Shown one piece after another: positions 13,531-30,082 of a stretch of DNA of 31,450 nt (within the stretch, counting starts at the first letter, position 1; each line of letters opens with the position of its first letter). The position numbers were made by a program, and so were the translations under genes. The stretch is taken from the IMG/VR virus record IMGVR_UViG_3300017774_005258, positions 1 to 31,450 of that record. One strand, written 5' to 3'. Source of the stretch: a virus (lineage: Duplodnaviria > Caudoviricetes). The notes below the pieces were generated by a model, which searched no databases, was not told where the DNA came from, and worked only from the letters and a program-made list of their open reading frames with translations.

Positions 13531-14349
13531 ATGTTAAAAAATAAAATAGTTGAAGGGATTGATGAGTTTGGTGCTCCTGATGAAAAATATTATGCGTTTG
13601 ATTGGGATGATAACATAGTATCGATGCCAACCAAAATCATATTAAAAGATGAAGATGGTGATGAGGTAGGAATGTCAACAGAAGATTTTGCAACTTATAG
13701 AGAAGAAATAGGTAAAGAACCTATTGAGGTTGAAGGACACACGATAGTAGGATTTGCTGAAGATGCTTATAAATGGTTTGGTGTTAAAGGTGATAAACAA
13801 TTTATTGTCGATGCTATGATGGCTAAACCGGGACCGGCTTGGCCTGATTTTGTAGAAGCTATAAATAATGGTTCAATATTTTCAATTGTTACAGCTAGAG
13901 GACATACACCTTCAGTATTAAAAGAAGGTGTTTATAACTATATTGTTTCAAATACGAATGGTATAGATTCTAATGAATTGGTTAGAAATTTAGAAAAATA
14001 TCGTGATTTAGCGGATGAAGAAAATGTATCTAAAAGAGAAATGATACGAGAATATTTAGATTTATGTAGATTTTATCCTGTTACTTATGGTGAAGGTTCG
14101 GCAACAAATCCGGAACAAGGTAAAATCAAAGCTTTAAATGAATTTGTCAAATATGTTAAGGAAATGTCTGATTATATTCAGAAAAAAGCTTACTTAAAAA
14201 ATAAGATAAGTAATTATTTTGTTCCAAAAATAGGTTTTTCAGATGACGACTTAAAAAATGTGGAAGTTGTTAAAAAACATTTTGAAAAAGACCCAGAGAA
14301 TATAATTAAAACATATTCAACATCAGGAGGAATTAAAAAAGAATATTAA
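13531..14349 (+). CDS. HAD-superfamily phosphatase-like protein
   Basis: Motif I YAFDWDDNI, motif II SIVTARG, conserved Lys (QGKIKAL), motif IV IGFSDDDLKN. Confidence 0.75.
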   Translation: MLKNKIVEGIDEFGAPDEKYYAFDWDDNIVSMPTKIILKDEDGDEVGMSTEDFATYREEIGKEPIEVEGHTIVGFAEDAYKWFGVKGDKQFIVDAMMAKPGPAWPDFVEAINNGSIFSIVTARGHTPSVLKEGVYNYIVSNTNGIDSNELVRNLEKYRDLADEENVSKREMIREYLDLCRFYPVTYGEGSATNPEQGKIKALNEFVKYVKEMSDYIQKKAYLKNKISNYFVPKIGFSDDDLKNVEVVKKHFEKDPENIIKTYSTSGGIKKEY

Positions 14350-14508
14350 AATAATTATTATAAATAAAAACTATTAAATAATTAATTATAATAACTAGGA
14401 TTTCTAGAATTATAAAAAATTTAAATCTAAAAGTCAAGAGAAAAAAATTAAATAGGTAATATTTATAATAAACAAGATAAAAAAATAAAAATTAAAAACA
14501 AATAGACA

Positions 14509-14997
14509 ATGGCCGATTTATTAATGAAAATGCCCATACCGTATGAACCAAAAAGAAATAATCGTTTTATTGTGCGATTTCCATCTTCATTAGGTATTAA
14601 TGAGTGGTTTGTTGAAGCGGCAGCTAGACCTCATATTACAATAAACGCGGTAGAAATACCTTTTTTAAATACCTCAACATATGTGGCAGGTCGTTTTACT
14701 TGGGGTAAACTAAATGTTACTTTTAGAGACCCAATTGGACCATCGGCATCACAAGCTCTTATGGAATGGGTTCGTTTATGTGCCGAGTCTGTTACAGGTA
14801 GAATGGGATATGCTGCGGGATATAAAAAGAATGTTGACCTTGAGATGTTAGACCCAACAGGTGTAGTTGTTGAAAAATGGATATTCGAAGGAACATTTTT
14901 AGACGATGTCAATTTCAATACTTTAGGTTACTCAGACGATAAGTTAGCAACAATCTCAGCTTCATTACGAATGGATAGATGTATACTCGTTTACTAA
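14509..14997 (+). CDS. gp19: Tail tube protein (gp19-like)
   Basis: 'YEPKRNNRF...ARPHI...YVAGR.TW..LNVTFRDPI...LMEW...YKK...LEMLDPTG.VVEKW...F..LGY...RMDR'. TATTTATA lies at 14460-14467. Confidence 0.93.
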   Translation: MADLLMKMPIPYEPKRNNRFIVRFPSSLGINEWFVEAAARPHITINAVEIPFLNTSTYVAGRFTWGKLNVTFRDPIGPSASQALMEWVRLCAESVTGRMGYAAGYKKNVDLEMLDPTGVVVEKWIFEGTFLDDVNFNTLGYSDDKLATISASLRMDRCILVY

Positions 14998-15021
14998 TTT
15001 TTTAACATACCCTTTACATTC

Positions 15022-15077
15022 AAAAGTAAAATCCATATATATATCGTATAACACGGTAATGTATGGATTTTACTTTT
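15022..15077 (+). promoter_or_regulatory. Long RNA hairpin (19-bp + 6-bp stems) that sequesters ATG 15063; may also act as a terminator
   Basis: AAAAGTAAAATCCATATAT (15022-15040) pairs with ATGTATGGATTTTACTTTT (15059-15077) with one G-U pair; inner stem TATCGT/ACGGTA. Confidence 0.75.
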
Positions 15078-15156
15078 TTCACAACTAATAGTAAATCGGG
15101 ATATAAGACAACAGAAAAATGGTTGTGGAAATATCAGGAGGGAATATATTATTTAA
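15063..15156 (+). pseudogene. Internally deleted endonuclease-like gene remnant (N-terminus joined to C-terminus out of frame)
   Basis: ATG 15063 gives MDFTFFTTNSKSGYKTTEKW...; another frame from 15121 gives GCGNIRREYII*. These resemble the two termini of large phage endonuclease-like mobile ORFs (recalled, not searched). Confidence 0.5.
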
Positions 15157-15207
15157 TGTTTATATAAAAAAAACATTACTTATTATTTATAATAAAAAGA
15201 AAATTAT

Positions 15208-15963
15208 ATGGATACAAATTTAATAAAAGCGGGTACTGAAAATTTTACCCTACCTCACGACATTGTTCAATTACCCTCCGGGGGGATTTTTTATAAATCA
15301 AAAATTAAATCAGTCAAAGTTGGTTATTTAACCGCTAGTGATGAAAATTACTTGATAGGTTCGTCTCGTACTTCTGATAATATTATTTTGACCTTACTAA
15401 GAAATAAACTTTACGAACATTCTTTAAGACCTGAAGAACTTTTAGATGGTGATATTGAAGCTATATTAATATTTTTAAGAAACACTTCTTTTGGACCAGA
15501 ATATAATATTAATTTAACTGACCCTCAGACAAATAAATCATTTACAACAACAATTCTTTTAGACGAATTAAATATTAAAAAAACTGAATTTAAACCGGAT
15601 GAGGATGGAACATTTACAACTAAATTACCAAAATCAGGTGTTACAGTAAAATTAAGACCAACAAATTTGAGTGATACTGTTGATTTGGACAAAATGGAAT
15701 CAGAATACCCACAAGGTAGACAATTTCCTAAAATAACTTTGAAATTATTAAAACACGTAATTGAGGTCGATGGTAATACTGATAGGTCAAAAATAAGTTC
15801 ATTTATTGATACATTACCAATTATGGATTCTAAATACATAAGAACTTTTTTAAGAGACAACCAACCTTCATTGGACCTTAAAAGAACAGCAATCGCCCCA
15901 TCAGGAGAATTGGTATCTTTCGAGATTACCTTTGGGGTGGACTTTTTTCGGCCTTTCTTCTAA
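15208..15963 (+). CDS. gp26-like baseplate hub assembly / tail assembly chaperone
   Basis: 'LPSGG.FY...V.YLTASDENYL...LLDGD..AILIFLRNTSFGPEY...LP.SG..VK...D...I..FI..LP..DS..IR...P...FGVDFF'. It lies between the tube and tape measure genes; TATTTATA at 15184-15191. Confidence 0.8.
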   Translation: MDTNLIKAGTENFTLPHDIVQLPSGGIFYKSKIKSVKVGYLTASDENYLIGSSRTSDNIILTLLRNKLYEHSLRPEELLDGDIEAILIFLRNTSFGPEYNINLTDPQTNKSFTTTILLDELNIKKTEFKPDEDGTFTTKLPKSGVTVKLRPTNLSDTVDLDKMESEYPQGRQFPKITLKLLKHVIEVDGNTDRSKISSFIDTLPIMDSKYIRTFLRDNQPSLDLKRTAIAPSGELVSFEITFGVDFFRPFF

Positions 15964-16108
15964 TCACAGACAATTAATTTTAGAAGAATACTTGTATTTA
16001 ACAAAAACAATAAATTTATCCTATTCTGATTACCAAACGATGCCTACGTATGTCAGAAAATATTTAATAGACCGAACTATTGAATTAAATACTCCAAACA
16101 TGGTGTAA
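15947..16108 (+). CDS. Overlapping +1-frame extension of the chaperone (G-T type), probably reached by frameshift
   Basis: The +1 frame reads FGLSSNHRQLILEEYLYLTKTINLSYSDYQTMPTYVRKYLIDRTIELNTPNMV*. It has no ATG until codon 32 and begins at the GAC TTT TTT CGG run. Confidence 0.7.
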   Translation, partial: FGLSSNHRQLILEEYLYLTKTINLSYSDYQTMPTYVRKYLIDRTIELNTPNMV

Positions 16109-16129
16109 AAACGATGTTTGGAGTATTTA
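16086..16129. repeat. Perfect 16-bp inverted repeat (probable terminator/processing hairpin)
   Basis: TAAATACTCCAAACAT (16086-16101) and ATGTTTGGAGTATTTA (16114-16129) with a 12-nt spacer, followed by TTTAT. Confidence 0.75.
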
Positions 16130-16149
16130 TTTATAAAACCTAATTTAAT

Positions 16150-17859
16150 ATGCAAACTGAACCAAATGCTGCAGATGCCGGAAGTAGTCTAAACATGCCT
16201 GATAGGGACATAGGAGCATCTCTAGCTTCCAATTTAAACCCTAGTGACATTAAAGAGATTGTTATAAATTTAGATGAGGCTGCGTCAAGAATGCTCAAAC
16301 AGTTTGGTCAAGCCCGAGAAATGTCTGATACAATACGGAAATCTATAACCGAATCTGTCACTTCAGTTCGTAAGTTAGGTGGTGATATTGATGATGTATT
16401 AAAGACACAATCCCAAGCCGCATCATCTTTGGGTAGAAATGTATTAATAACACAAGAAACTACAACCAGTTTATATGCGGCTTTTAAAGTTACTGGTCAA
16501 GAAGTTACTAAAATAGTTAATGCTATGGCGGATGTTGGTATTTCGGCGTCAGACGCTGGTGAGCAGATGCACAATGTTGTGAAGGTCGCGAGAGAACTTG
16601 GTGTTAATGCTGCAGCGGTGTCAGAAAAAGTTATCACTAATATGGATGCCCTTAACAAATTTAATTTCGAAGGAGGAGTGACAGGATTGGCTAAAATGGC
16701 GGCTCAGGCAACAATGTTAAGAGTTGATATGAAAAAAACTTTAGATTTAGCCGACAAAATGTTTAATCCTGAAGATGCAATTAAAACTGCGGCCGCTTTA
16801 CAAAGATTAGGTGTTACTCAAAGTGATTTATTAGACCCATTAAGATTGATGGAATTAGGTCAAAATGACCCCGCTGAATTACAAAATCAAATTGCTGAAA
16901 TGAGTAAACAGTTTGTTAAATTAGGTAAAGATGGTAACTTTGAAATTGCGCCTGGAGCTAAAGGTCAGTTAAGAGAAATCGGAAAAGAATTGGGTATGAC
17001 GGGTGGTGAAATTGAAAAAATGGCTTTAGCCGGAGCTAATTTAGATAAAAAATTAAAAGAAATAAATTTTTCAGTAAATGCGACAGAAGATGATAAAAAA
17101 TTAATTGCTAATATGGCCGAAAAGGGTAAGGATGGTAGCTATAAAGTAAAAATTGATGGGAAAGATAAAAATGTTGATGATTTAAGTAAAGAAGATATTG
17201 ATAAATTGATAGAAGAATCCAAAAAGGGTCCTCCAACAATTGAAAAATTGGCTGAAGAACAATTAGGTGTGCAAAAAGACATGCTAGCGGCAATTAAAGG
17301 CACTAGTGACTTAACTGGTTTAGCGGTATCAAATAGTAAAACAGGTGATAAACTTTTAGGAACGGCAAAGAGTGCTGTAATGAAAACAAAAACAGTTATA
17401 CCGGACACGATGACAGATTCAAGTAAATATGGAAAAACAATAGACGATATTGCTGCCGGTGTAGCGACATCAAATTTAACTACATCTTTTTCAACTCTTT
17501 CAACTTTTGTTACAGATACTTTAATGAAGGGTTTTGAAAATTTAAATAATGGTATTAATAACGTTGTTAGCCCAATGACTAACACTCCTACCTCTACTTC
17601 AAGTAATAGTTCGTCCCAACTACCCTCAAATACCAATAATCAAAATCAATCAAGTGCGACAGGTACAAATAATCAAAATACATCTTCAACTGTTAATGTT
17701 AATTACAATGTCAATGTAACGGCCAATGGTAATAATGTTAATACTGATATGGTTAAACAGGCTGTCTCAGAGGCGATAACAAATGAAAAAACAGTTTCCG
17801 CAATTAGAGATGGGTTTGAAAAATTATATCCTAAAAAAGGAGCCACGCAAGTAGCATAG
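16150..17859 (+). CDS. Tail tape measure protein
   Basis: Ala/Gly/Leu/Met-rich helical sequence in the canonical position after tube and chaperone. The Ser/Thr/Asn-rich C-terminus ends in 'VNVNYNVNV'. TATTTATA lies at 16128-16135. Confidence 0.75.
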   Translation: MQTEPNAADAGSSLNMPDRDIGASLASNLNPSDIKEIVINLDEAASRMLKQFGQAREMSDTIRKSITESVTSVRKLGGDIDDVLKTQSQAASSLGRNVLITQETTTSLYAAFKVTGQEVTKIVNAMADVGISASDAGEQMHNVVKVARELGVNAAAVSEKVITNMDALNKFNFEGGVTGLAKMAAQATMLRVDMKKTLDLADKMFNPEDAIKTAAALQRLGVTQSDLLDPLRLMELGQNDPAELQNQIAEMSKQFVKLGKDGNFEIAPGAKGQLREIGKELGMTGGEIEKMALAGANLDKKLKEINFSVNATEDDKKLIANMAEKGKDGSYKVKIDGKDKNVDDLSKEDIDKLIEESKKGPPTIEKLAEEQLGVQKDMLAAIKGTSDLTGLAVSNSKTGDKLLGTAKSAVMKTKTVIPDTMTDSSKYGKTIDDIAAGVATSNLTTSFSTLSTFVTDTLMKGFENLNNGINNVVSPMTNTPTSTSSNSSSQLPSNTNNQNQSSATGTNNQNTSSTVNVNYNVNVTANGNNVNTDMVKQAVSEAITNEKTVSAIRDGFEKLYPKKGATQVA

Positions 17860-17914: not shown

Positions 17915-20900
17915 ATGTCAAGTACATTATCGTTTGCATCTTCCTCATCATTTAGAGATATATTATTATCAAGAAATTTAGTACCTTATAGTGTTACTGG
18001 AGTTTATACACCATCATCATCCGGAATAAACACAGAATTAACATTAAGTAATTATAATGTAATAGATTCTCCGAATGAGTTAATTACAAATGGTCCTTTT
18101 GCTAATCAATTATATCCTCTTAATGAGTATGGCCCTGATGGAGGTTATGATTTAAATATTAATTATAATGGTGCTCCACTTCCGATTAATCCAAATCAAG
18201 GGGAGTATAGTCCAAATGATACGGTTTTAGATATTATTAATGAGTTTTTTATTGACTCAGCATATATTAATAACTATTACGGTCCTGTTGGTGGATTCAA
18301 TAATATGTATGGTGTTACCACCCAAATATTAGGTCAACCCATACATCAACCTTACAGAACAAATTTTATTGCTTCATCTTATTCACCCTATTTAATTTTA
18401 TTATCTCCAGACCCTGTTGGTAGTGATGGATTATTATCTCAGGATTCCTTTCTTGCAAGATTGGGAGCTCAGAAATTAAATGAACTTTTTCAAGAAAGGA
18501 TAGCTAGACAAATTTTTATCAGTACTGTTGGTCAAGTTAATTTAGAGTCATTATCTGACCCATTTGAGGCTAGTTTAATTGTATCCGGACAAGAACCTTT
18601 AGTTTATAGAAATTGGAAGATTACATCTCCGGAGGACCCAATTTTAGCCGCCGCTGATTTGATAACAAGATTAGGTGGGGCATATTGGCCTGTATCCCCA
18701 ATTCCGGGAGACTATTTCAGTGATAACACGAGAAATGGTCAAACACAACAAACATCAACGGCCTTAAATGTTGTTAATCAATTAACAGGTGGATTTTTAG
18801 GTCCAATTTTAAATGTTAAAAGAAATCCTTCTGAAATATTTTTAGCAAATACCGGAAATGGACAAAGGTCTGTTTTATTTAGAAATCTTAATTATAACCG
18901 TTATCAACCAAGTTATGATAAAAATTTTGGAGGATTATTAGGAATTGGTCAAGCAATTGTTAGTTTAATTAATCCCGATAATGGAACGTTGGTTGGGGGT
19001 TATTATGTTGGTAGTAGAAATTCTGAACCATCCACAATAACTTCTCCACCAAATCAAGTTCCTGTTAATGCTTTTGGACAACAAGAACAATCACCGGTCT
19101 ATGGACCTTCTGAATTAGGTATTCTATATGAAGGTAATCAAGATACTCTTAATTTTGGTTTGGCAGGAAAATCAATTAGTGATAGTGGGGGTATTGATGG
19201 ACAATTCATTTGGACATCCCCTAAATATAAAGCAAACGCTGGTTTTAAAGCAACACCCGGAGGAGGGTCGGGTTCGGCAGATGCAGAATTTAATTTAATT
19301 AGTAGTAATTATCTTAAAAATGAATCGACTAACATTACATTCAAACAAACCTCAATATTAGACCAAACACAGAGATTAGTTGACTCTGCGGATAATGTAC
19401 AAGGTATCTCAAGATTAAAACACGTTGGTAATGCCATAAACCAAGTTAGTAAGGTGTTTAATGATGGGTATAAAGAGATAACTAAAGGTTCACAAGTAAT
19501 TTCTTATAAAGACCAAACAACTGGTGGTGAGGCGGGGATAGAATATTGCAGAGTTTTTACAAAAGACACACCATATTACACTTATAATGACTTACAAAAA
19601 GTAGATGGGATTACTACTTCGGGAAGAAGATTTAGTAGTTCAGTTTTAGATAACACATTCAATTTAAATATTTCTCCAACCAGAAATCCTGGCTCAACTA
19701 ATATAATTGCTGATAATGAAAATGGAATTGGGGGTTATGCTAAAAAATATATGTTATCAATAGAGAATTTAGCGTGGAGAACATCGAGTAAACAAGGATT
19801 TACTTACGATGAATTACCTGTTTGTGAAAAAGGACCAAATGGGGGTAGAGTTATGTGGTTCCCACCATATAATTTGAAATTCAACGATACAAGTCAGGCA
19901 AGTTTTAATCCAGTAACATTTTTAGGTAGACCCGAACCTATTTTCACATATAAAGATACTAGACGTTCTGGTTCTTTAAGTTTTAAAATTATTGTTGACC
20001 ACGCTTCTGTTATGAATGTTTTAGTTGAAAAACAATTGAAAGGTCAAAACAAAGAAAGAATTAATTCTATTATGGATTCTTTTTTTGCTGGATGTGTTAA
20101 ATACGATATTTATGAATTAGCTAAAAAGTTTAATACCGTTCCAACTAAAGATTTATATACATATCAAAAAATATTAAATAACCCTAGCTTGGATACTGAT
20201 ACCGCAAGAGAAGTAATTCAAGAAACTAAAGGAGAACCCTCTATCGGAACATCTACCACACAGGGAACAAGTGACCCAAAAGGAGAACCTGAGTTATCAA
20301 TTGCGGATTTGACTGAGTATGAGCAATTTGGGTTTTACTTTGATAATGACATTCCCGGTCCCTCAAATAGACAAATTGTGGTACCTAATTCGGATTATAA
20401 ATCTGATTATAATAGTTATGTTTCTGAAACAAATCAAACAACTTATGTGAACAAGTCAAATAGCTTGTTTGACCCTAATAATCCTAATCGTAATGTTAAA
20501 GAATTTTTCAATAATATAGTCATTGATAATTTCAATCACATAAACACTAAGTTTGTTGAAGACGCATTTAAAATTTTAAGCGAGAAAACGGGAACTATTA
20601 AAATAACATTAAGAAGTGCTGCGTCGGCACCAGCAAACCCTACATATAATATTGCGTTATCTAAAAGAAGAGCGGTTTCTGTTACTGAATATTTAAAAAC
20701 AACAAAATTAGGAGAATTTATAGGTAACACTTTAACTTTTTCAAATCCGGAAACGGTTGGTGAGGATGAAACGGCAATTCCCAAAAAATCAGATAAATCT
20801 GTTGGAGCTTCGGTTACTTGTACTAAAGATATTGTTGATAAAAATAATAAAACTAATAATAATGCGGCTCAAACATATGCGGTCGATGCTATGGCTTGTA

Positions 20901-22858
20901 GAAGAGTTGTGTTTGGAAAAATTGATGTCACGCAAATAAAAAAAGAAATTGTTATTGAAGATAAACCAGATATTACAATAATTCCGGACGGCAAAGTTGA
21001 TATTAAACCTGACCCACAACCGAAAAAAAAGGAACCAACGTATAGAATTGATAAAAAAATTAAAGAAGGAATAAGTAAATTAATTCTAAGACGATTATTA
21101 TCTGAATGTGATTATTTTGACGTGGTAAAAAAAGAAAATCCTATGTTATATGAGTCTATTCAGGAAAAAATTAAATTTTTTAATCCTGCTTTTCATTCTA
21201 TGACACCAGAAGGTTTAAATTCTCGTTTAACTTTTTTAAATCAATGTTTAAGACCCGGAGAAACAATACCGGTAATTGGTAATAAAGGTGAGATAATACA
21301 AAATGATGCTTTAAATACTTCTTTTGGGGCACCTCCGGTATTGGTATTAAGAATAGGTGATTTTTATAATGGTAAAATTATACCAAATAATCTTAGTTTT
21401 ACTTATGACCCATTAGTTTTGGATATGAATCCTGAGGGAATTGGTGTTCAACCAATGATTGCGGATGTAACTCTTTCTTTTGACATGATAGGAGGTATGG
21501 GGTTAGCAAAACCAGTTGAGGAATTACAAAACGCATTATCTTTCAATTATTATGCTAATACAGAAATATATGATGAAAGGGCTACTTGGACAGATGATAG
21601 TTGGAAAGCTTTAGATAAACAATATTTTCAAAATTTAATTGATGAACAACCACCAATAACTGACGTTGTTAATCAACAACCAAATCCTGCTGGTGAGACA
21701 ATTGGTGAAATTCAAACAACTATACCTGGTGAAAGTGGTCAAACAGGAGACATCACTTATAAAAAAATTATGGATACTTTATTAGATGTTACTGAAGAGT
21801 ATTACACCAATATTGTAAATCAAAAAGAAAGTATGATTGACTCATTTAACGAGGGTGTGTGGCAACTTATCTCAAAAGATTTAAGTTATACAAAAGGGTC
21901 AGTTAATTTTAATATTAATAATCTACCTCCCCCTAAAACACTCACAATTTATGGTAAACCAAATTTTGATGAAAAATTAAATAAATTATTTGATACAGTA
22001 ATTGAAGATATTGATAATGACCAAAATTTCATAATTTTTGGATTAATCTCTGATAATTTTGGAGACGTTGTGTTGAGAGACGTAAAAACAAATTTAAAAA
22101 ATTATGTTAATAATTATAAAACGGATTTTACATTAGGTGTTAACGGAATTGTTACCAATATTACACAACAACAAGTAAATATGGTTCAAGTTTTTAGAAA
22201 GATTAATTACGTAAATACCGAATCTGATGGTTTGACAGTAAGTTCAAAACCAAAAATATATAATATATCAGGAACTGATGAGGTTAGTAAGTTGAGCTCA
22301 CCTATACCAATAGATACCCGTGTGGAATTATATGAAGATTATGACAGGGTGGTCACGGATATAGAACTTTTTTATCAATTTATGAGTGATACTGATATAA
22401 TAATAGATACCTATTCATTACCAAAGGATTTTATCCCTACGGAACCTGGTATTTTTACAAGTGATTCTGATAAAGCTTTTTTTATGGTTATGGCACAAGT
22501 TTTTAACAATACGAGTAATTTAAATACATTTAGAGATTTAATAATTACTGATGATATGGATAAGCAGACATCGGGATTATTAAGAAAATTTAATAAAATA
22601 GTTGATGATTTTAAAGATAAGGTTAAAGATGAATTGAAAGCAGAAAAAAAACAAATTAAAGATGTTAAAAAAAGTGAAAAGTATTCAAATTTTACAAACG
22701 TTGAAACTCTTTATAAAAAAGGTAAAACACGTAAGTTTACATATACAACAGAAATATCTCCTCAAAATGAGGAAAAAATCAATAATTTAAATTTATTATA
22801 TCAAGGTAACAATAGTGGTGATAATACAACTTGGACCGATAAAACCCAATTTAATTAG
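17915..22858 (+). CDS. Large baseplate protein: split tube-initiator-like domain with inserted OmpA-like domain
   Basis: 'WFPPY...F.D...FLGRPEPIFTY..T.RSGSLSFKI' and 'APPVLVLRIGDFY..KII..LSFTYD...QPMIADVTLSF' flank 'FYFDND...ITLRSAASA...YNIALSKRRAVSVTEYL...VGE...CRRV'. TATTTATA lies at 17891-17898. Confidence 0.65.
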   Translation: MSSTLSFASSSSFRDILLSRNLVPYSVTGVYTPSSSGINTELTLSNYNVIDSPNELITNGPFANQLYPLNEYGPDGGYDLNINYNGAPLPINPNQGEYSPNDTVLDIINEFFIDSAYINNYYGPVGGFNNMYGVTTQILGQPIHQPYRTNFIASSYSPYLILLSPDPVGSDGLLSQDSFLARLGAQKLNELFQERIARQIFISTVGQVNLESLSDPFEASLIVSGQEPLVYRNWKITSPEDPILAAADLITRLGGAYWPVSPIPGDYFSDNTRNGQTQQTSTALNVVNQLTGGFLGPILNVKRNPSEIFLANTGNGQRSVLFRNLNYNRYQPSYDKNFGGLLGIGQAIVSLINPDNGTLVGGYYVGSRNSEPSTITSPPNQVPVNAFGQQEQSPVYGPSELGILYEGNQDTLNFGLAGKSISDSGGIDGQFIWTSPKYKANAGFKATPGGGSGSADAEFNLISSNYLKNESTNITFKQTSILDQTQRLVDSADNVQGISRLKHVGNAINQVSKVFNDGYKEITKGSQVISYKDQTTGGEAGIEYCRVFTKDTPYYTYNDLQKVDGITTSGRRFSSSVLDNTFNLNISPTRNPGSTNIIADNENGIGGYAKKYMLSIENLAWRTSSKQGFTYDELPVCEKGPNGGRVMWFPPYNLKFNDTSQASFNPVTFLGRPEPIFTYKDTRRSGSLSFKIIVDHASVMNVLVEKQLKGQNKERINSIMDSFFAGCVKYDIYELAKKFNTVPTKDLYTYQKILNNPSLDTDTAREVIQETKGEPSIGTSTTQGTSDPKGEPELSIADLTEYEQFGFYFDNDIPGPSNRQIVVPNSDYKSDYNSYVSETNQTTYVNKSNSLFDPNNPNRNVKEFFNNIVIDNFNHINTKFVEDAFKILSEKTGTIKITLRSAASAPANPTYNIALSKRRAVSVTEYLKTTKLGEFIGNTLTFSNPETVGEDETAIPKKSDKSVGASVTCTKDIVDKNNKTNNNAAQTYAVDAMACRRVVFGKIDVTQIKKEIVIEDKPDITIIPDGKVDIKPDPQPKKKEPTYRIDKKIKEGISKLILRRLLSECDYFDVVKKENPMLYESIQEKIKFFNPAFHSMTPEGLNSRLTFLNQCLRPGETIPVIGNKGEIIQNDALNTSFGAPPVLVLRIGDFYNGKIIPNNLSFTYDPLVLDMNPEGIGVQPMIADVTLSFDMIGGMGLAKPVEELQNALSFNYYANTEIYDERATWTDDSWKALDKQYFQNLIDEQPPITDVVNQQPNPAGETIGEIQTTIPGESGQTGDITYKKIMDTLLDVTEEYYTNIVNQKESMIDSFNEGVWQLISKDLSYTKGSVNFNINNLPPPKTLTIYGKPNFDEKLNKLFDTVIEDIDNDQNFIIFGLISDNFGDVVLRDVKTNLKNYVNNYKTDFTLGVNGIVTNITQQQVNMVQVFRKINYVNTESDGLTVSSKPKIYNISGTDEVSKLSSPIPIDTRVELYEDYDRVVTDIELFYQFMSDTDIIIDTYSLPKDFIPTEPGIFTSDSDKAFFMVMAQVFNNTSNLNTFRDLIITDDMDKQTSGLLRKFNKIVDDFKDKVKDELKAEKKQIKDVKKSEKYSNFTNVETLYKKGKTRKFTYTTEISPQNEEKINNLNLLYQGNNSGDNTTWTDKTQFN

Positions 22859-22860
22859 AA

Positions 22861-23187
22861 ATGAATAATAAACAAAATTACAATAGATATAACGATTTTT
22901 TGTTAAACGGTGAACAAAGTGTTGTACCCTACATTTCTATTTCGAGTAAAGCTTCTGATAAAAGATTTATTTATAAAATAGGACAATCAAGATTAGATAA
23001 AATGTCACAACAATATTATGGGACACCAACATTCGGGTGGTTGATTCTTGCTGCTAACCCAATCTTTGGTGGTGTGGAATGGAATATACCAGATGCTGCT
23101 ATATTGACAATACCATTTCCTTTAGTATCTTCTTTACAAGAATATAAATCCCGATTAGACAATCATTTTTATTACTATGGTAGGTAA
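22861..23187 (+). CDS. LysM-like baseplate wedge protein (gp53/gpX-like)
   Basis: 'YKIGQSRLDKMSQQYYGTPTFGWLILAANP...IPDAAILTIP'. Confidence 0.8.
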   Translation: MNNKQNYNRYNDFLLNGEQSVVPYISISSKASDKRFIYKIGQSRLDKMSQQYYGTPTFGWLILAANPIFGGVEWNIPDAAILTIPFPLVSSLQEYKSRLDNHFYYYGR

Positions 23188-26100
23188 ACCCGAAAATATA
23201 TTGGTCGAATTTGACTATAATAATATATCAATCATTGACCCAAATAAGGTTTTAGATAGTGATAATAATGTTATTGATAGGTTCATTAGACAAGAAGATT
23301 TAGTTATGTATGCTAATCTTGAGTGTGATGTTATACCAAGAACTAAATTAGCCATTGGTACTGGAATTGGAGATTCCATTAGGACAGTGTCTATCTCAAA
23401 AATTAATTTTTTAAAGCCTGGAAATAAACCTTATTTAGATAATTCATATACTGATGAATTAACCGGTAAAGATTCTATAAAAGGAAAAGGAGTTAATCAA
23501 CCAACTCTTAACACTATTACAAATCCAATTAATAGTGAAGATTATTATATTAAACAAACCATCAGTTCAGGAGGGAAAGCTGGTTCTATGGATAGTGGTT
23601 TATTAGGTATTACAGATATACAAATTAAACAAGGATTAGATTTTACTCCAGTAATAGACATAAAATTGACGGACATTAAAGGACGTGCATTATTTGAGGC
23701 GGGAGATAATTCACCATATGCTACATTTTTTAATTTACCTTATCCATTATTTTATCTCACAATTAAAGGATTTCTCGGTAAGGCTGTTAGATTAGGTTTA
23801 ATGTTACAAAATTTTACATCAAGTTATAATTCTGAAACGGCTAACTTTGACATAAGTTTAAAATTTTATACGTATAAATATACCGTTTTAACGGAAATTA
23901 CTATGGGTGCTATTTTAGCAACACCTCATATGTATCAATCAAGGTTTAATATTGCTCAAAGTAGTGGTGGTCCTAGTAAAACAACAACAACTCAAAGTGT
24001 TTTGGTTGAAAAAGGTTTTCAAAAAATAAGGGAGATGTATAGTGAATATAAATCTAAAGGTTTAATTTCTGATGATTTTCCTGAAATTACTTTAATGCAA
24101 CTAAGAGATAGACTCAAAAATTTTATTAAAAATATATTAGATTCTTTTGTTCAACAAAATTTAGACCCATTAACAGATTTGAAAACTTACGGGGAACAAT
24201 TATTAGATTATCAAAAAACGGTATTTTACACTTTAAAAGTTTCTTGGTTTTACGAATTTATGGATACTGAAAATTTTTTCATTTTAAACAATACGGCTGA
24301 AAAAATTTACGTCTTTAATAAGAGTTTAACTCCTCAAAAAAAAATTGAAGCTAAAGAAAAATTAAAAAGTATTATATCTCGTTATAATACTTTATTAAAT
24401 AATAATAAAACTTGTGGTTTAAATGGTTCTTATACTATTAATGGAAAAACAATAAAATCTTCAATACCAAACAGTATTATATACGAAAATTTTGTAAAAA
24501 AAATTAATGGTGACGATATTAATTTAGAAGAAACTTACAAACAACAAAGAAAAAATAATTCACCAACACCCGAAGATTTAAGTAAATTTAAAACCGAATT
24601 AGAAAACAATGGACTTTTTAATAATTTAAACATTACTCTAAAAAATGGTGCAAAACAAGTAGAATCAGATTATTTTGTATTTGAAGGTAATTTATCGTTT
24701 GTTGATTTAACTGAAAAAATTAATAAGGAATTAAAAATCAAAAGTAATGAAATTGAGGATGCGTTAACAAATGCCCTTTCTGATTTATTGAAAAAAAGTG
24801 ATAATGGGATTGGGTTTGTCCCAACAATTAGAAATATTTTAGCTGTTATATTCGCTAATGGAGAAGCTTTTTTACGATTATTAGATGATGTTCACACCAA
24901 AGCATGGGAAAAAAGAGATTCTGAAATCAGGAAAAAAGTTATTTTTAGTAGTGAAATTTCAAATGCTAGTTCAGATAATAAAACTTCAGGTGACGATAAA
25001 AATCAACCGGTATATCCTTGGCCACAAGTCATAAAAGCGACTCCGGGTGAAAATGGTCAAGAAAAATATGAGTTAAGGTATCCCGGTGATAGTGATATCA
25101 TTGGTGAAACCAAAGGTGGTTCATATGATGTTTGGCCAGAAATTGAGTTTGTTGAAGAATTTATTAATGGATTGACTCAAAAAACTCCCCCACCTGCACC
25201 ACCAGCAAAAATTTCTAATGTTGTTACTGAACCTAACAGATTCACTTTGGGGGCAATTGAATTTCCAATAAATAATCAAGTTTTTCAGAATAAGAATATT
25301 AGTAAGTTTATATATGAAATTTATGAAAGGGCTGATTTAACATCTCACTATTCTAAGTTAGATAGGACAACAAATTCAAGTTCAGAATCCGATAAAATAT
25401 CAAATGTTATTGCCGAAGGTGAAACAAATAATATTACTAAAAGTTTAGATTATACTAGTGATGCTCAATTAACTAAAACATTGAAAGAATATAATATACC
25501 ATCTAAGGATTTTGAAAAAATGTTAAAAAACATTTCAAATAATGGAGCTTCAGAAAGTTGGCAGAATTATATACGAGCAATTCCTAATACAGGATATATT
25601 AAAAACTTAGTCGAAAATAATTCGTTTAAATTCATTAGTAATCAAGACATAAATAGTTCCTTATCACAACCAGTTGTTTCAATAACAAATGAAAATGATA
25701 TTGTTAATTATTTAAATAGTTCAACAACATCAAATCAGTTTGATTTTACTGATTTATATCCATTTACAAATAAAGAATGGGTGAAAAATAATTTGGCAAA
25801 TGGTACTGCGACTGATGAAAAATTAGCGTTTAACACAACAAAATCACTAATTTTTAATACTAATAAAAAAGTTATATCAAATTTTAGTGATTCTCAATCT
25901 GGTGATAGTAAAAAACCAATAACTAATTTTATTTACAAAAAAATTGTAGAACCTACAAATTATGTTAATAACTTAAGGAATTTCTATAGTACAAGAACTT
26001 ACACAACTCAATTACCTACTGAGGGTGATGTTAAGTATTTAAATTATTCGGGGTTTGTTAGTGATTATCAAACAACTTCGATTTTTAATACTCCATATTT

Positions 26101-29100
26101 TATAAACTCAATTCAACAAGGGGTAAGTAAATCTATTAATAGTGAAGAAAATCCATATGTTAGTTCGGCTTATTTATTTATTAATAGTTTACCATTATCA
26201 ACATTAAGAGAAAAGTATAAAACATATAATGGAACAGATGCAAATTATTCGGATGAAAGTTTAGATTACATTTTTGCAACTATGAAAAAATTTGCAGCAA
26301 TTCATAAAGTTCCGTATGCTTGGGTTTTAAAAATAGGTTCAATTTGGCATCGTTATAAAACATATCTTAACACAAATATTGACATTTTAAGTGATTGTTG
26401 GAAGGATTTTGATTACCTATCTAATTTTGACCCTGTAAATAATGATAAAAATAGGGCTTATAAAATTAATATTCCTAATGGATTAAGTGCAACAACAATT
26501 GTTTTAGAAAACTATTCTACAGGTCAAACATCGACATTTAGTGGTAATGTAACCACCATAAATATTGGGTTTTATCCTAAACTTATTAATTCCTTTAATA
26601 TATTTTATCAGGGATATAGTCTTTTTACAGGATATACTGACACAGATATTCAAACAAGTATTGATAAAAATGAATTAATTTTAAGTTATGTACCGGAAGC
26701 GGTTATTAATAATTTAAATAATAAAATACCGTCTTCTAGTGTTGTTAATAAAGTAATTCCTTGGTCTGTTTCGGTTAATACAGACTATGGTGATTATCAA
26801 TATATTATGCCATCACACGGTAGTTTAATAAATCAAACAAAGGATGAGTGTATAAATAATCTTGATGAAATTGTTTATTCATTATCCGCTAATACTTCAA
26901 TGTATAATGGTTCTGTAAGATTATTTTGGGCGTCACCTAATTATGGTTATTTTGATAATAGTAAAGTTACCCCACCCCTTCCATTACAATATTTAAAACA
27001 AATTTTTTCTGGTTTGGAATCTCAAGAAAATTTCTCAATCAATGGTGATGTTAATAATTATACCGAAATGAGTGAAATGTTTTCTGTTTTTGACAAAAAT
27101 GAGTTAGATGAGTTTGAAAAAAAATTTTTAAAGTTTTCTGATTCAATTTATGACTACGACGATACGGAAAATTTAAATGAAACAGAAACAGAAAAAACAT
27201 TTAAAAATTTCCAATCATTAATGAGAATTATGATGAAAATCCCAAACACAGATATAGAACAACCATCTGTGAATGAGATTCAAAGTAAACAATTAGTCAG
27301 TATGTCTAATTTAATAACTAATTTTTTAAATTATGATGTGTATTTTAAAATTGGGAACCCGTCATCATTTAATAAACAATTATTTTATACATTTTCAAAT
27401 AATCATAAAATAGAAACACCAATAACTTGGGATTATTATAATTATAATACACCAAATTCATTACCTACTACCGACCCTAATTCACCATCATTAAATGTAT
27501 CTATATTTTTAAAACCAGATGAGTGGGTAGCGTTAGAAACATACGTTGGTTTTTCTGAAATATCCGGATTAACTTATTCAGATAATGGGTCATTTATTAC
27601 GGACTTTTTTGTGGATTGTAATATTGCTTTCGATGTGTATAACATAGAAAAATTAGCACCAATTATTAAAATATATGCTACTCAAAAATTAAAAGACAAC
27701 ACTTTAAATTATGACAAATTTGTCAATTTGATGAATGGTTATTTAGATGGTTTAGATTCCTTTAATAGTGCAATTATTAAAAACACTGTAATTAAATTAC
27801 AAAAATTATTACCTGATGTTAATTTTTCACCACAACCAAAAATTGAAACTGTTTTAGAGAGTAAACAAAGCAAACTTGAATTATGGGAATCTTTTAAGGC
27901 AACAAATGATAAATGGATATCAGGAATTGATTTTAAATCAAAAACTTTATTTGAAGATGTTTTATTATTAGACAGAGCCAGTAGAGATGTTGGTAATATT
28001 ATTTTAGTTGATATTGAAAAAATATTTAATGATTTAGATAAAATTAACGTTACTCAAACAATGTTAACATATGTCAGAACAATTTTGATTGATAATCATT
28101 TTGTAATTATGAATATACCGTCATATGTTAATTTTTATAATGTTCAAGATGCAATCAAAAACCCTGTGCCAAGACCTGATGGTACTACAGAATTTGCTAA
28201 CAGTTTATTTGGCACTTTTTTAAGTGTTGATTACAGAGAATCTTCGGCAAAAATGGTTTGTTTTTATGGAGGTAAACCGAGTGAGCAGTTAGATTTAAAA
28301 GATAATGTAGATTATAGATTCAGAAATGATGCTTTTGATTTAAGAAGACAAGATAATCCGTTAGTTGAAAATCAAACAAATAAAAAAGATTGGGATAAAT
28401 CTAATAAAGTTGTTGGTTTTAACATCGATTTTGGACCTCAAAATCAATCTATTTTTAAAGGATTTAGTGTTTCTCAAGACCCGGGACAATCAACAGCAGA
28501 ATCATTGGAGATGATTTATAAAATGGCAAATCAATCAAATAATAAAGGGGGTTCTACCCAAAATATTTCACTTTACAATTTATATAAAAATAGAAGTTAT
28601 AGTTGTCAAGTTGGTATGTTAGGTAATGCTATGATACAACCAACTATGTATTTTAATTTAAGACACGTCCCAATGTTTAGCGGTCCATATATGATAACGG
28701 AAGTCAGTCATAGTATTAGACCAGGTGGTTTTGATACAACTTTTTCAGGTATTAGACAAGCAACAACATCTTTACCAAAAATAGATAATTATCTCCAATC
28801 TCTAAAAACAACTTTATTACAATCAATTCTTGAGAGAAATAATAAAAATAAACAGGAAAAAGAAAAAACTGTACTTAAGGAAAAGTCCGATAATGATAAT
28901 GTTAAAAAACAAACTAGTGATAAAGTTGATGAAAATACAAAAAAAGAAGCAAAAAACGTAAGTAATAGTCAAAATTGTAAACCTGATAACCCTAAGTATG
29001 ATAAGTTTACGGTGACTGATGATAAAGATAAAGTAAGTTCTAGTGCAACATATAAACAAGTTGTTGATTTAATAGCGTCAAAAACACCCACAGGAGACCA

Positions 29101-30082
29101 AAAAATGAGATATGCGGTTTTTGCAACAATGTATATAAGGTCATCTCAAAGTCGTATGTTACAATCTAATTTCAATAATTACAGTGCTGTGGATTTATTA
29201 CAAGATTGGGGACCATCGGTTGAAGAATTTTTTAAAACAAAAAAATACTATTGTAGTGATTCAAATAAACCGTATGTTGTGTTTGATAGTTTAAATCAAA
29301 ATGTTGAATTTTTAATTTCTAGATATAAAAATAGAGTTGATACTATTAAAAGTATCTCCGCGACAGATATTGCAAAGTTTATAATAATATATGGTGATGC
29401 AGCTATTCCAACATCAGATTCTGTTTATACATCAATGAGTTCTACAGATATTAAAACAATTGAAAGTCTTGTTGAATCCGCTATCAAAGAATATAATCCA
29501 TCAAGTGGAAATAACACTAATCAAACACCACCGGCACCAACAGCGGTTCCTCAAACAACTAGTGATGATAAAGGTGTTCTTGAAGACTCATTAGTTTTAA
29601 ACACTTATTTTTTTAATAATTTAAAAATAAATAGTAACGGGTCTTTAAGTGGTGATTTTGTTATTCTTAGTAATGGTAATATATTAAGTCAACCATACCC
29701 CGCTAAATTATATCTTCCGGGTCAAATGAATTTAGTTGAAATTGCTACTTTTACTATGAACACTAATCAAAACAATACAGGTTCATTCATAACTAATGCT
29801 AACATTATTGAGGCGATAGACCTAGTTCGTAATCGTGATTCGTATGAAAACGCTTTTATTGTTGTAATTAACGCATTTTCTAATTTAAGATTTGTACGTA
29901 ATAAGGTTATTATGCCGTTGGACTGTCCTGGTGAAGGATTTACATATCGTCAGATAATTGATGTTGGTGATTGGGATGCCATTAAAGATGATATATGTTG
30001 TAATTGTTACCCTAATCCATATACCGGTATGCAAATTGTTTGGGATGGAAAATCTTGTTCTAAAAATGGAACAACCTGTTAA
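23177..30082 (+). CDS. Giant baseplate hub protein (gp27/gpD/VgrG-like termini) with extra domains
   Basis: N-terminal 'LGITDIQIK...PVIDIKLTD..G..LF...FYLTIKG'; late-control-D-like 'YSCQVGMLGNAMIQP..YFNL..VP.FSGPYMITEVSHSI...FDTTFSGIR'. It follows the LysM gene. Confidence 0.65.
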   Translation: MVGKPENILVEFDYNNISIIDPNKVLDSDNNVIDRFIRQEDLVMYANLECDVIPRTKLAIGTGIGDSIRTVSISKINFLKPGNKPYLDNSYTDELTGKDSIKGKGVNQPTLNTITNPINSEDYYIKQTISSGGKAGSMDSGLLGITDIQIKQGLDFTPVIDIKLTDIKGRALFEAGDNSPYATFFNLPYPLFYLTIKGFLGKAVRLGLMLQNFTSSYNSETANFDISLKFYTYKYTVLTEITMGAILATPHMYQSRFNIAQSSGGPSKTTTTQSVLVEKGFQKIREMYSEYKSKGLISDDFPEITLMQLRDRLKNFIKNILDSFVQQNLDPLTDLKTYGEQLLDYQKTVFYTLKVSWFYEFMDTENFFILNNTAEKIYVFNKSLTPQKKIEAKEKLKSIISRYNTLLNNNKTCGLNGSYTINGKTIKSSIPNSIIYENFVKKINGDDINLEETYKQQRKNNSPTPEDLSKFKTELENNGLFNNLNITLKNGAKQVESDYFVFEGNLSFVDLTEKINKELKIKSNEIEDALTNALSDLLKKSDNGIGFVPTIRNILAVIFANGEAFLRLLDDVHTKAWEKRDSEIRKKVIFSSEISNASSDNKTSGDDKNQPVYPWPQVIKATPGENGQEKYELRYPGDSDIIGETKGGSYDVWPEIEFVEEFINGLTQKTPPPAPPAKISNVVTEPNRFTLGAIEFPINNQVFQNKNISKFIYEIYERADLTSHYSKLDRTTNSSSESDKISNVIAEGETNNITKSLDYTSDAQLTKTLKEYNIPSKDFEKMLKNISNNGASESWQNYIRAIPNTGYIKNLVENNSFKFISNQDINSSLSQPVVSITNENDIVNYLNSSTTSNQFDFTDLYPFTNKEWVKNNLANGTATDEKLAFNTTKSLIFNTNKKVISNFSDSQSGDSKKPITNFIYKKIVEPTNYVNNLRNFYSTRTYTTQLPTEGDVKYLNYSGFVSDYQTTSIFNTPYFINSIQQGVSKSINSEENPYVSSAYLFINSLPLSTLREKYKTYNGTDANYSDESLDYIFATMKKFAAIHKVPYAWVLKIGSIWHRYKTYLNTNIDILSDCWKDFDYLSNFDPVNNDKNRAYKINIPNGLSATTIVLENYSTGQTSTFSGNVTTINIGFYPKLINSFNIFYQGYSLFTGYTDTDIQTSIDKNELILSYVPEAVINNLNNKIPSSSVVNKVIPWSVSVNTDYGDYQYIMPSHGSLINQTKDECINNLDEIVYSLSANTSMYNGSVRLFWASPNYGYFDNSKVTPPLPLQYLKQIFSGLESQENFSINGDVNNYTEMSEMFSVFDKNELDEFEKKFLKFSDSIYDYDDTENLNETETEKTFKNFQSLMRIMMKIPNTDIEQPSVNEIQSKQLVSMSNLITNFLNYDVYFKIGNPSSFNKQLFYTFSNNHKIETPITWDYYNYNTPNSLPTTDPNSPSLNVSIFLKPDEWVALETYVGFSEISGLTYSDNGSFITDFFVDCNIAFDVYNIEKLAPIIKIYATQKLKDNTLNYDKFVNLMNGYLDGLDSFNSAIIKNTVIKLQKLLPDVNFSPQPKIETVLESKQSKLELWESFKATNDKWISGIDFKSKTLFEDVLLLDRASRDVGNIILVDIEKIFNDLDKINVTQTMLTYVRTILIDNHFVIMNIPSYVNFYNVQDAIKNPVPRPDGTTEFANSLFGTFLSVDYRESSAKMVCFYGGKPSEQLDLKDNVDYRFRNDAFDLRRQDNPLVENQTNKKDWDKSNKVVGFNIDFGPQNQSIFKGFSVSQDPGQSTAESLEMIYKMANQSNNKGGSTQNISLYNLYKNRSYSCQVGMLGNAMIQPTMYFNLRHVPMFSGPYMITEVSHSIRPGGFDTTFSGIRQATTSLPKIDNYLQSLKTTLLQSILERNNKNKQEKEKTVLKEKSDNDNVKKQTSDKVDENTKKEAKNVSNSQNCKPDNPKYDKFTVTDDKDKVSSSATYKQVVDLIASKTPTGDQKMRYAVFATMYIRSSQSRMLQSNFNNYSAVDLLQDWGPSVEEFFKTKKYYCSDSNKPYVVFDSLNQNVEFLISRYKNRVDTIKSISATDIAKFIIIYGDAAIPTSDSVYTSMSSTDIKTIESLVESAIKEYNPSSGNNTNQTPPAPTAVPQTTSDDKGVLEDSLVLNTYFFNNLKINSNGSLSGDFVILSNGNILSQPYPAKLYLPGQMNLVEIATFTMNTNQNNTGSFITNANIIEAIDLVRNRDSYENAFIVVINAFSNLRFVRNKVIMPLDCPGEGFTYRQIIDVGDWDAIKDDICCNCYPNPYTGMQIVWDGKSCSKNGTTC

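Follow-up and report, generated by a model that had tools for sequence, protein, structure and literature searches.

The locus studied here raises the question of how a phage expresses a second open reading frame that overlaps the end of a tail gene in a different frame. The window, i.e., the whole stretch of DNA that was analysed, is a contig of 31,450 bases and represents the entire record. According to Pfam and PHROG profiles, its genes include those for DNA polymerase B, an SNF2 helicase, sheath, tube, and a gp26-like protein as well as large unannotated tail genes. Close relatives were found on contigs of up to 318 kb and the matching sequencing runs were mostly freshwater metagenomes; the lineage carrying the locus is described here as freshwater giant phages. 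The gene starts in the window are A/T-rich and none of the 17 shown has an evident Shine-Dalgarno (SD) sequence when judged by eye, which recalls Bacteroidota as a possible host type. The features of the locus are:

14509–14997, plus strand: tail tube gene (T4 gp19-like; phrog_4542 tail tube, E 6e-23), upstream context
15208–15963, plus strand: gp26-like gene, 251 aa, short chaperone form (G or TAC-N; PF12322, E 2e-10; phrog_150, E 2e-14)
15894–15939, plus strand: 5′ RNA stem-loop, outer stem 15894–15900 with 15933–15939, variable inner stem at about 15912–15930; putative stimulator
15943–15951, plus strand: shift site UUU_UUU_CGG, predicted P-site codon 15946–15948 moving to UUC at 15947–15949
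15950–16108, plus strand: T or TAC-C domain in the +1 frame, 52 codons; open and selected frame, detected by a T-domain HMM in relatives
16150–17859, plus strand: probable tape measure gene, 569 aa, judged by position

The tube gene also showed a weak match to Pfam PF06841 that was under the cut-off. The tape measure candidate had no match in Pfam or PHROG; in the phages LIS04 and HSE3 the gene at the same position is annotated as tape measure. With the tube gene before it and the probable tape measure gene after it, the gene pair is placed as in G/GT systems. Between the sheath and tube genes lies a 272-aa gene (13531–14349) without a Pfam or PHROG match; its DWDDN motif gives it what we take to be the look of a HAD-like phosphatase. 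The spacer ahead of the gp26-like gene contains an inverted repeat (15023–15080), recognized by eye as AAAAGTAAAATCCATA and its complement, which is possibly a terminator or processing stem. Two very large ORFs of the tail region, 17915–22858 (1647 aa) and 23177–30082 (2301 aa), had no Pfam match.

The probable shift site at the end of the gp26-like gene

The gp26-like ORF terminates with GGG GTG GAC TTT TTT CGG CCT TTC TTC TAA and contains a T6 run at 15943–15948; the predicted P-site codon specifies residue 247. The +1 frame is open from 15854 to 16108, which corresponds to 53 codons when counted from TTC at 15947. Its first ATG occurs only at 16040, and TTG codons are present at 15932 and 15992. 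The -1 frame provides Phe and nine further codons before a stop. CGG accounts for 3 of 309 Arg codons and is the joint rarest sense codon among the 9727 codons of 18 window ORFs, in which an in-frame TTT_CG occurs a single time, at the shift site. A first-pass annotation of this DNA had described the gene end, the open +1 frame with its 53-aa segment, the early closure of the -1 frame, the missing early ATG and the rarity of CGG, all of which were confirmed. It had also proposed a +1 (or -2) frameshift with a +1 product of about 299 aa beside the one of 251 aa; the predicted fusion was computed to be 299 aa with +1 and 300 aa with -2, with 52 further codons after the P-site codon. An assembly error at the T6 run was rejected: of four sequencing runs compared, one DNA run and one RNA run provided near-identical contigs over the site, and these list no indel there; the RNA-run contigs give neither strand nor level. 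The run is also present in near-identical IMG/VR copies.

According to the mechanism proposed here, peptidyl-tRNA-Phe would exchange its pairing with UUU for one with UUC at a moment when the A site holds the rare CGG, which might be decoded slowly in the host. The gp26-like gene would then give the 251-aa chaperone and, as a minor product, the 299-aa fusion. Observed support comes from the site itself, the open and selected +1 frame, the lack of a conserved start, the codon bias, and a covarying 5′ stem. Judged from the sequences, programmed ribosomal recoding at the locus is very probable, and a programmed +1 frameshift yielding the 299-aa fusion beside the 251-aa chaperone is probable.

Conservation of the site and probable direction of the proposed shift

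Four scans of viral contigs with at least 80 loci each and 15 GenBank regions yielded 336 sources including the window. T4 was set aside, one source had no G match and nine were truncated, which left 214 non-redundant junctions. Using an iterated HMM of the T domain seeded on +1 frames, the domain was detected in 208 of these junctions, 206 times in the +1 frame and twice in the -1 frame; six were missed by the +1-seeded model. After manual inclusion of two of these missed loci, in which a +1 ORF is evident, filtering to less than 90% identity left 158 relatives.

In the loci with Phe-Phe-Arg, the second Phe codon is TTT in 83/83, the first is TTT in 79 and TTC in 4, and Arg is encoded by CGN in 83/83 compared to a background of about 13% (87% AGR); one scan pattern required the residues FF[RL]PF, so that the amino acids at this position were selected but not the codons. 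UUU_C with CGN in the A site, as in influenza PA-X, is thus conserved in all 83 loci. All four CGN codons occur among the relatives, and therefore the rarity of CGG alone is not required. A Phe-Phe-Trp (UGG) variant is found in 46 of the 158 relatives, with TTT as first Phe codon in 46/46.

Within 40 codons past the G stop, a stop in the +1 frame was found in 0/41 relatives, whereas each other frame was stopped in 41/41. For the 41 loci of equal geometry, a rough pN/pS was 0.42 in the +1 frame compared to 1.54 and 1.31 in the other frames, and the third-position entropy was 1.37 compared to 0.86 and 0.60. By these sequence measures, the +1 frame is under purifying selection. Its conservation starts directly at the site, with Ser at +3 in 83/84 loci. 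The Phe codon three places past the site (15955–15957 in the window) is TTC in 81/81 relatives compared to a background of 22%, which is explained by this Ser in the +1 frame. The first-pass annotation had recommended an alignment of related loci and had named homologs without the T run, or without coding conservation in the +1 frame, as arguments against a shift; the alignment revealed a conserved site and coding-type conservation instead. With a second ORF that is out of frame, lacks its own start and follows a conserved slippery site, the locus has the composition of a G/GT pair.

A -2 slip of peptidyl-tRNA-Phe on U6 (UUU to UUU), as in phage Mu, would insert an extra Phe and give a product of 300 aa. 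Re-pairing after such a slip is perfect at the window site, and 135 of the 158 sites, including the window, allow Phe re-pairing in both directions; 14 allow only +1, 9 only -2, and none allows neither. The +1-only sites are distributed over several lineages and include L106, inside the window's own well-supported clade, and the cultured phages HSE3, GXN1, and pSt2308. TTC TTT CG, where -2 re-pairing is impossible, occurs in 4/83 Phe-Phe-Arg sites and TTT TTC CG in 0/83, and for this reason +1 is favoured over -2. In addition, backward shifts are damped by upstream hairpins in vitro according to the accessible part of PMC6321510. A -2 shift in the window consequently appears improbable, and by far the larger share of the ribosomal case is assigned to +1 on the sequence evidence. 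The recoding proposed in the first-pass annotation is thus supported, and of its two directions +1 is the likely one, although most sites fit both.

The nine sites that fit only -2 (NTT TTC) belong to one subclade with longer G proteins (L256, L257, L259, L263, L266, L267, L273, L274, L292), in which some members have an ATG shortly after the site; the subclade is a candidate for natural -2 frameshifts within the gp26-like family. In Listeria phage LIS04 (L083, 2190–2208), the site TTT TTT AGT lacks UUU_Y after the second Phe, which leaves a +1 shift at the first Phe or a -2 shift as the options.

Slippage of RNA polymerase on the T run with the help of the stem-loop forming in the transcript, as happens in Roseiflexus IS630, would produce a minority of mRNAs that are one U short and translated normally. 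The GC-rich stem 3 nt ahead of U6 does resemble the stem-loop-stimulated polymerase slippage in Roseiflexus described in the accessible part of PMC5009743. However, relatives with TTC TTT CG or CTG TTT CG have T runs of just 3, the same text gives runs of 9 for context-free slippage, and the RNA-run contigs show no indel at the T run, which is weak evidence since contigs drop rare variants. We regard polymerase slippage as very unlikely.

Just as unlikely, the +1 ORF might be expressed as a small gene of its own, either from TTG 15932 (58 aa) or through reinitiation, in parallel to annotated cyanophage gp51 genes, which are assumed to start independently. In 41/158 relatives no possible start precedes a TTG at -5 codons, and separately expressed chaperone pairs have been proposed for some Microbacterium phages in the accessible part of PMC7302621. 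However, the first possible starts of the 158 relatives are spread between -46 and +31 codons; 27 have no ATG, GTG, or TTG up to 6 codons past the site, an ATG is missing up to +6 in 125, and 7 carry a +1-frame stop two codons ahead of the site (e.g., L155, with TTG then TAG). The conserved independent start at TTG 15932, which the first-pass annotation had considered a possible counter-argument, was thus not found. Furthermore, TTG 15932 sits inside the 3′ strand of the stem, and a separate start leaves the fixation of TTT and CGN unexplained.

A covarying stem upstream of the shift codon

The first-pass annotation gave no upstream hairpin, and the conserved 5′ stem described here adds to it. 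The outer stem (15894–15900 with 15933–15939, 7 bp) has an interior of 32 nt and ends 6 nt ahead of the shift codon. Synonymous codon choice is atypical between codons -14 and -2, and folding of codons -19 to -2 gave a mean dG of -15.1 and a z of -2.28 relative to codon-preserving nulls (84 loci), compared to z values of -0.67 to +0.02 for five upstream control windows. The studied locus itself showed a z of -2.59 at the stem region. Against the stem stand a single-sequence dinucleotide z of only -1.56 and the RNAalifold result, in which four pairs were retained.

Covariation was analysed in 81 of the 84 loci (three without the motif were dropped), representing 80 distinct sequences, in which the outer stem is 90.7% paired. 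The outer-stem covariation was 0.261 compared to 0.159 in shuffled alignments (reached by 0/500) and at most 0.070 in slid controls; the structure was derived from the same sequences that were used for scoring, which favours the stem. The number of pairs with double changes was not above that of the shuffles (259/500). At 15897–15936, where both paired bases are synonymous third positions, 72 sequences have C-G, 5 have A-U, 1 has G-U, and 2 have a broken pair; the A-U state involves at least three changes on a quick tree, where L165 (A-U) is sister to L143 (C-G) with a support of 99. Taken together, the upstream covarying stem is quite probably real. A fixed inner helix was rejected, as only 55.5% of it was paired in one register and the register shifts between subclades. 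An intrinsic terminator was rejected as well: a scan of 14300–16400 found none, and a terminator here would interrupt the G ORF. Two Rfam matches lay far under the gathering score and were taken as chance. A conserved 3′ structure was not found in the +1 loci, where the mean dG of -5.4 to -5.8 resembled the background.

The stem might refold behind the ribosome, act like the SD duplex of prfB and in this way favour the +1 shift. According to PMC6321510, hairpins located upstream promote +1 and reduce -1 shifts of 70S ribosomes in vitro, with engineered ones reaching about 60% of the effect that the SD has on +1, and PMC10885494 discusses upstream hairpins as possibly overlooked. For the stem as frameshift stimulator we consider the chances evenly balanced. 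In a rival explanation, which we hold to be rather unlikely, the +1 shift occurs but GGGGUGG pairs with the anti-SD, or the stem has another function such as mRNA stability or pausing. GGG is indeed found at codon -4 in 73/81 loci compared to a background of 11%, the SD duplex was the stronger +1 stimulator in the accessible data of PMC6321510, and the hairpin of a sister group lies 33 nt away from the site. On the other hand, changes from GGG to GGT accompany changes from GCC/ACC to GCA/ACA/TCA on the partner strand, which SD pairing does not predict, and the lack of evident SD sequences at the window gene starts also argues against it.

This sister group, with Phe-Phe-Trp (L192–L245), has a covarying hairpin of its own, with 6 bp and a G-rich loop, 57 to 33 nt ahead of the site, which in 50 hand-picked loci is 85.8% paired with double changes in 5/6 pairs. 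Because it ends about 33 nt ahead of the site, it is too far away for an E-site-adjacent effect. The group also shows fixed C-ending codons (listed as CTT, AAC, GTC) from the hairpin to the site. A pseudoknot was unsupported, its second helix being 78% paired with one double change.

As a -1 control, a cyanophage-type motif scan provided 120 loci, of which 77 were usable and 74 distinct. In these 74 T4-like relatives the -1 frame is open in all cases, the upstream folding signal is absent (z -0.08), and downstream folding is more stable than in the +1 loci (dG -9.7 vs. -5.4), a contrast that spans few lineages rather than many independent events. Inspection by eye of the open frames of 24 GenBank relatives assigned the second domain to +1 in 7 and to -1 in 17, the latter with a T-rich run at the same Phe-Phe position; in all 24, the domain follows a Phe codon with which the gp26-like gene comes to its end. 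An upstream z below -1.5 was obtained for 4/7 of the +1 loci compared to 3/17 of the -1 loci; two of the seven +1 loci, LIS04 (z +0.83) and HSE3 (z -0.82), have a weak or no upstream signal. At the gp26 ends of cyanophages and other T4-like phages (L089, L336–L345, L346–L465), T_TTT_TTC precedes gp51, which occupies the -1 frame; a stop in this frame often lies a short distance upstream, together with more stable folding downstream. The annotated gp51 starts in such -1 loci are probably artefacts, and the sequences suggest that T4-like relatives without the hairpin are likely to undergo a backward slip at this position; in T4 itself, the two are separate genes. Tentatively, and with the odds slightly against it, the direction of frameshifting may have changed within one ancient gp26/gp51 locus while the U-rich Phe-Phe site stayed the same, the +1 lineage using a refolding hairpin as SD substitute.

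Relationship to known tail chaperones and frameshift sites

The gp26-like protein belongs to the T4 gp26 family (PF12322, phrog_150; S-PM2 gp26, E 4e-5). Its structural model (pLDDT 84) had no Foldseek match in the PDB at E 0.001 and agreed with a model of the SP-15 baseplate hub protein with a TM of 0.82. Both the complete model and the C-half by itself gave 3FGX, 3KLU, and the HK97 chaperone 2OB9 as top VIA-align rows (Z 5.1–6.5). The C-half aligned with HK97 TAC 2OB9 (Z 5.6, rmsd 3.6, 81 aligned) and the N-half with 3FGX (Z 6.5, rmsd 4.8, 91 aligned), both Z values being under the usual background of 8. We take 3FGX and 3KLU to be tail chaperones. The two halves of the protein resemble each other weakly (E 4e-4), and two chaperone-type domains appear in tandem at residues of about 6–104 and 125–225. 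A tandem tail-chaperone fold is plausible on the basis of these models.

In the T family, 13/124 members matched phrog_634 (gp51-type; best E 3e-8) and 14/124 matched DUF6760, and the T profile matched S-PM2 gp51 with a probability of 69% and E 4e-5. The gp51-type assignment holds at the family level; the window's own 52-aa T segment had no PHROG match. Homology to the C-terminus of T4 gp51 did not reach significance: residues 219–244 align, but at an E of 0.066, and the HMM was not significant. A natural in-frame G-T fusion was not found: a search with the T profile, limited to 7982 longer-protein candidates, gave four hits, none of them a G fusion, which is weak evidence.

T4-like gp26/gp51 were reportedly described as tail assembly chaperones by Vladimirov, Gautam, and Davidson in 2022. 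Their paper (Virology 566:9) is cited in the accessible parts of both PMC12846349 and PMC10885494, in the former for poly-T -1 signals in TAC-N genes of T4-like phages, and we therefore treat the G/GT reading of gp26/gp51 as known. The accessible part of PMC3004832 lists gp26 and gp51 as hub assembly chaperones and mentions no frameshift, and that of PMC5009743 describes G/GT shifting as widespread, by -1, -2 or +1, "except T4," with a likely +1 shift in HSTV-2. The G/GT system that the first-pass annotation had proposed for a gp26-like gene is thus supported, but it is prior art, and +1 shifts in tail chaperone genes were already known as well. A literature search, thin on subscription papers, found no report of a +1 shift or a 5′ hairpin in gp26-like genes, and the accessible parts of PMC12484599, PMC12282133, PMC12859696, and PMC7302621 contain no report of a UUU_UUU_CGG site. 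New here is the covarying 5′ stem ahead of the shift codon, which is absent in the 74 -1 T4-like relatives and may serve as stimulator.

With lambda gpG/gpGT, as described in the accessible part of PMC5009743, the locus shares a position between the tube and (probable) tape measure genes and a short chaperone followed by a C-terminal domain that is out of frame. It differs in the frame (+1 rather than -1), in a G protein that is twice as long and appears to have two domains, and in a stem located 5′ rather than 3′. By analogy to lambda, the short form might coat the tape measure and the long form recruit the tube protein. T4-like gp26/gp51 belong to the same families (PF12322, phrog_150, phrog_634), with a second domain that is in the -1 frame in most GenBank relatives rather than in +1 as here. 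In the haloarchaeal myovirus HSTV-2, which PMC5009743 describes besides Mu (-2), a tail chaperone is likely also extended in the +1 frame, in a different protein family and host domain. PA-X, for which the accessible part of PMC3498833 reports a +1 shift at UUU_CGU by MS with a P-site slip on UUU_C, shares the UUU to UUC movement and the following Arg CGN. The phage site would operate on a bacterial ribosome, has UUU instead of UCC as E-site codon, includes the Trp (UGG) variant, and carries a conserved 5′ stem, whereas no stimulator is evident in PA-X according to the same text. The prfB site and the engineered upstream hairpins in the accessible part of PMC6321510 share a duplex just 5′ of the E site and a slow (at the phage site presumably slow) A-site codon; here, the codon is sense rather than stop and the duplex is a natural 7-bp stem with a large interior rather than an SD duplex or an engineered 12-bp hairpin.

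Internal +1 sites easily escape detection, and a stimulator has been defined for few of those in bacteria. If the stem acts as proposed, bacterial +1 frameshifting would here be stimulated by a natural 5′ hairpin, in phages without evident SD sequences at their genes; such stimulators have so far been shown with engineered constructs. The gp26-like family offers hundreds of natural variants with -1 and +1 (possibly -2) shifts at one homologous position, including cultured members such as Bacillus phage SP-15, which makes the cause of frameshift direction directly testable. Annotations can be corrected as well, since GenBank records such as those of LIS04, GXN1, pSt2308, and SP-15 lack the second ORF or give it in truncated form.
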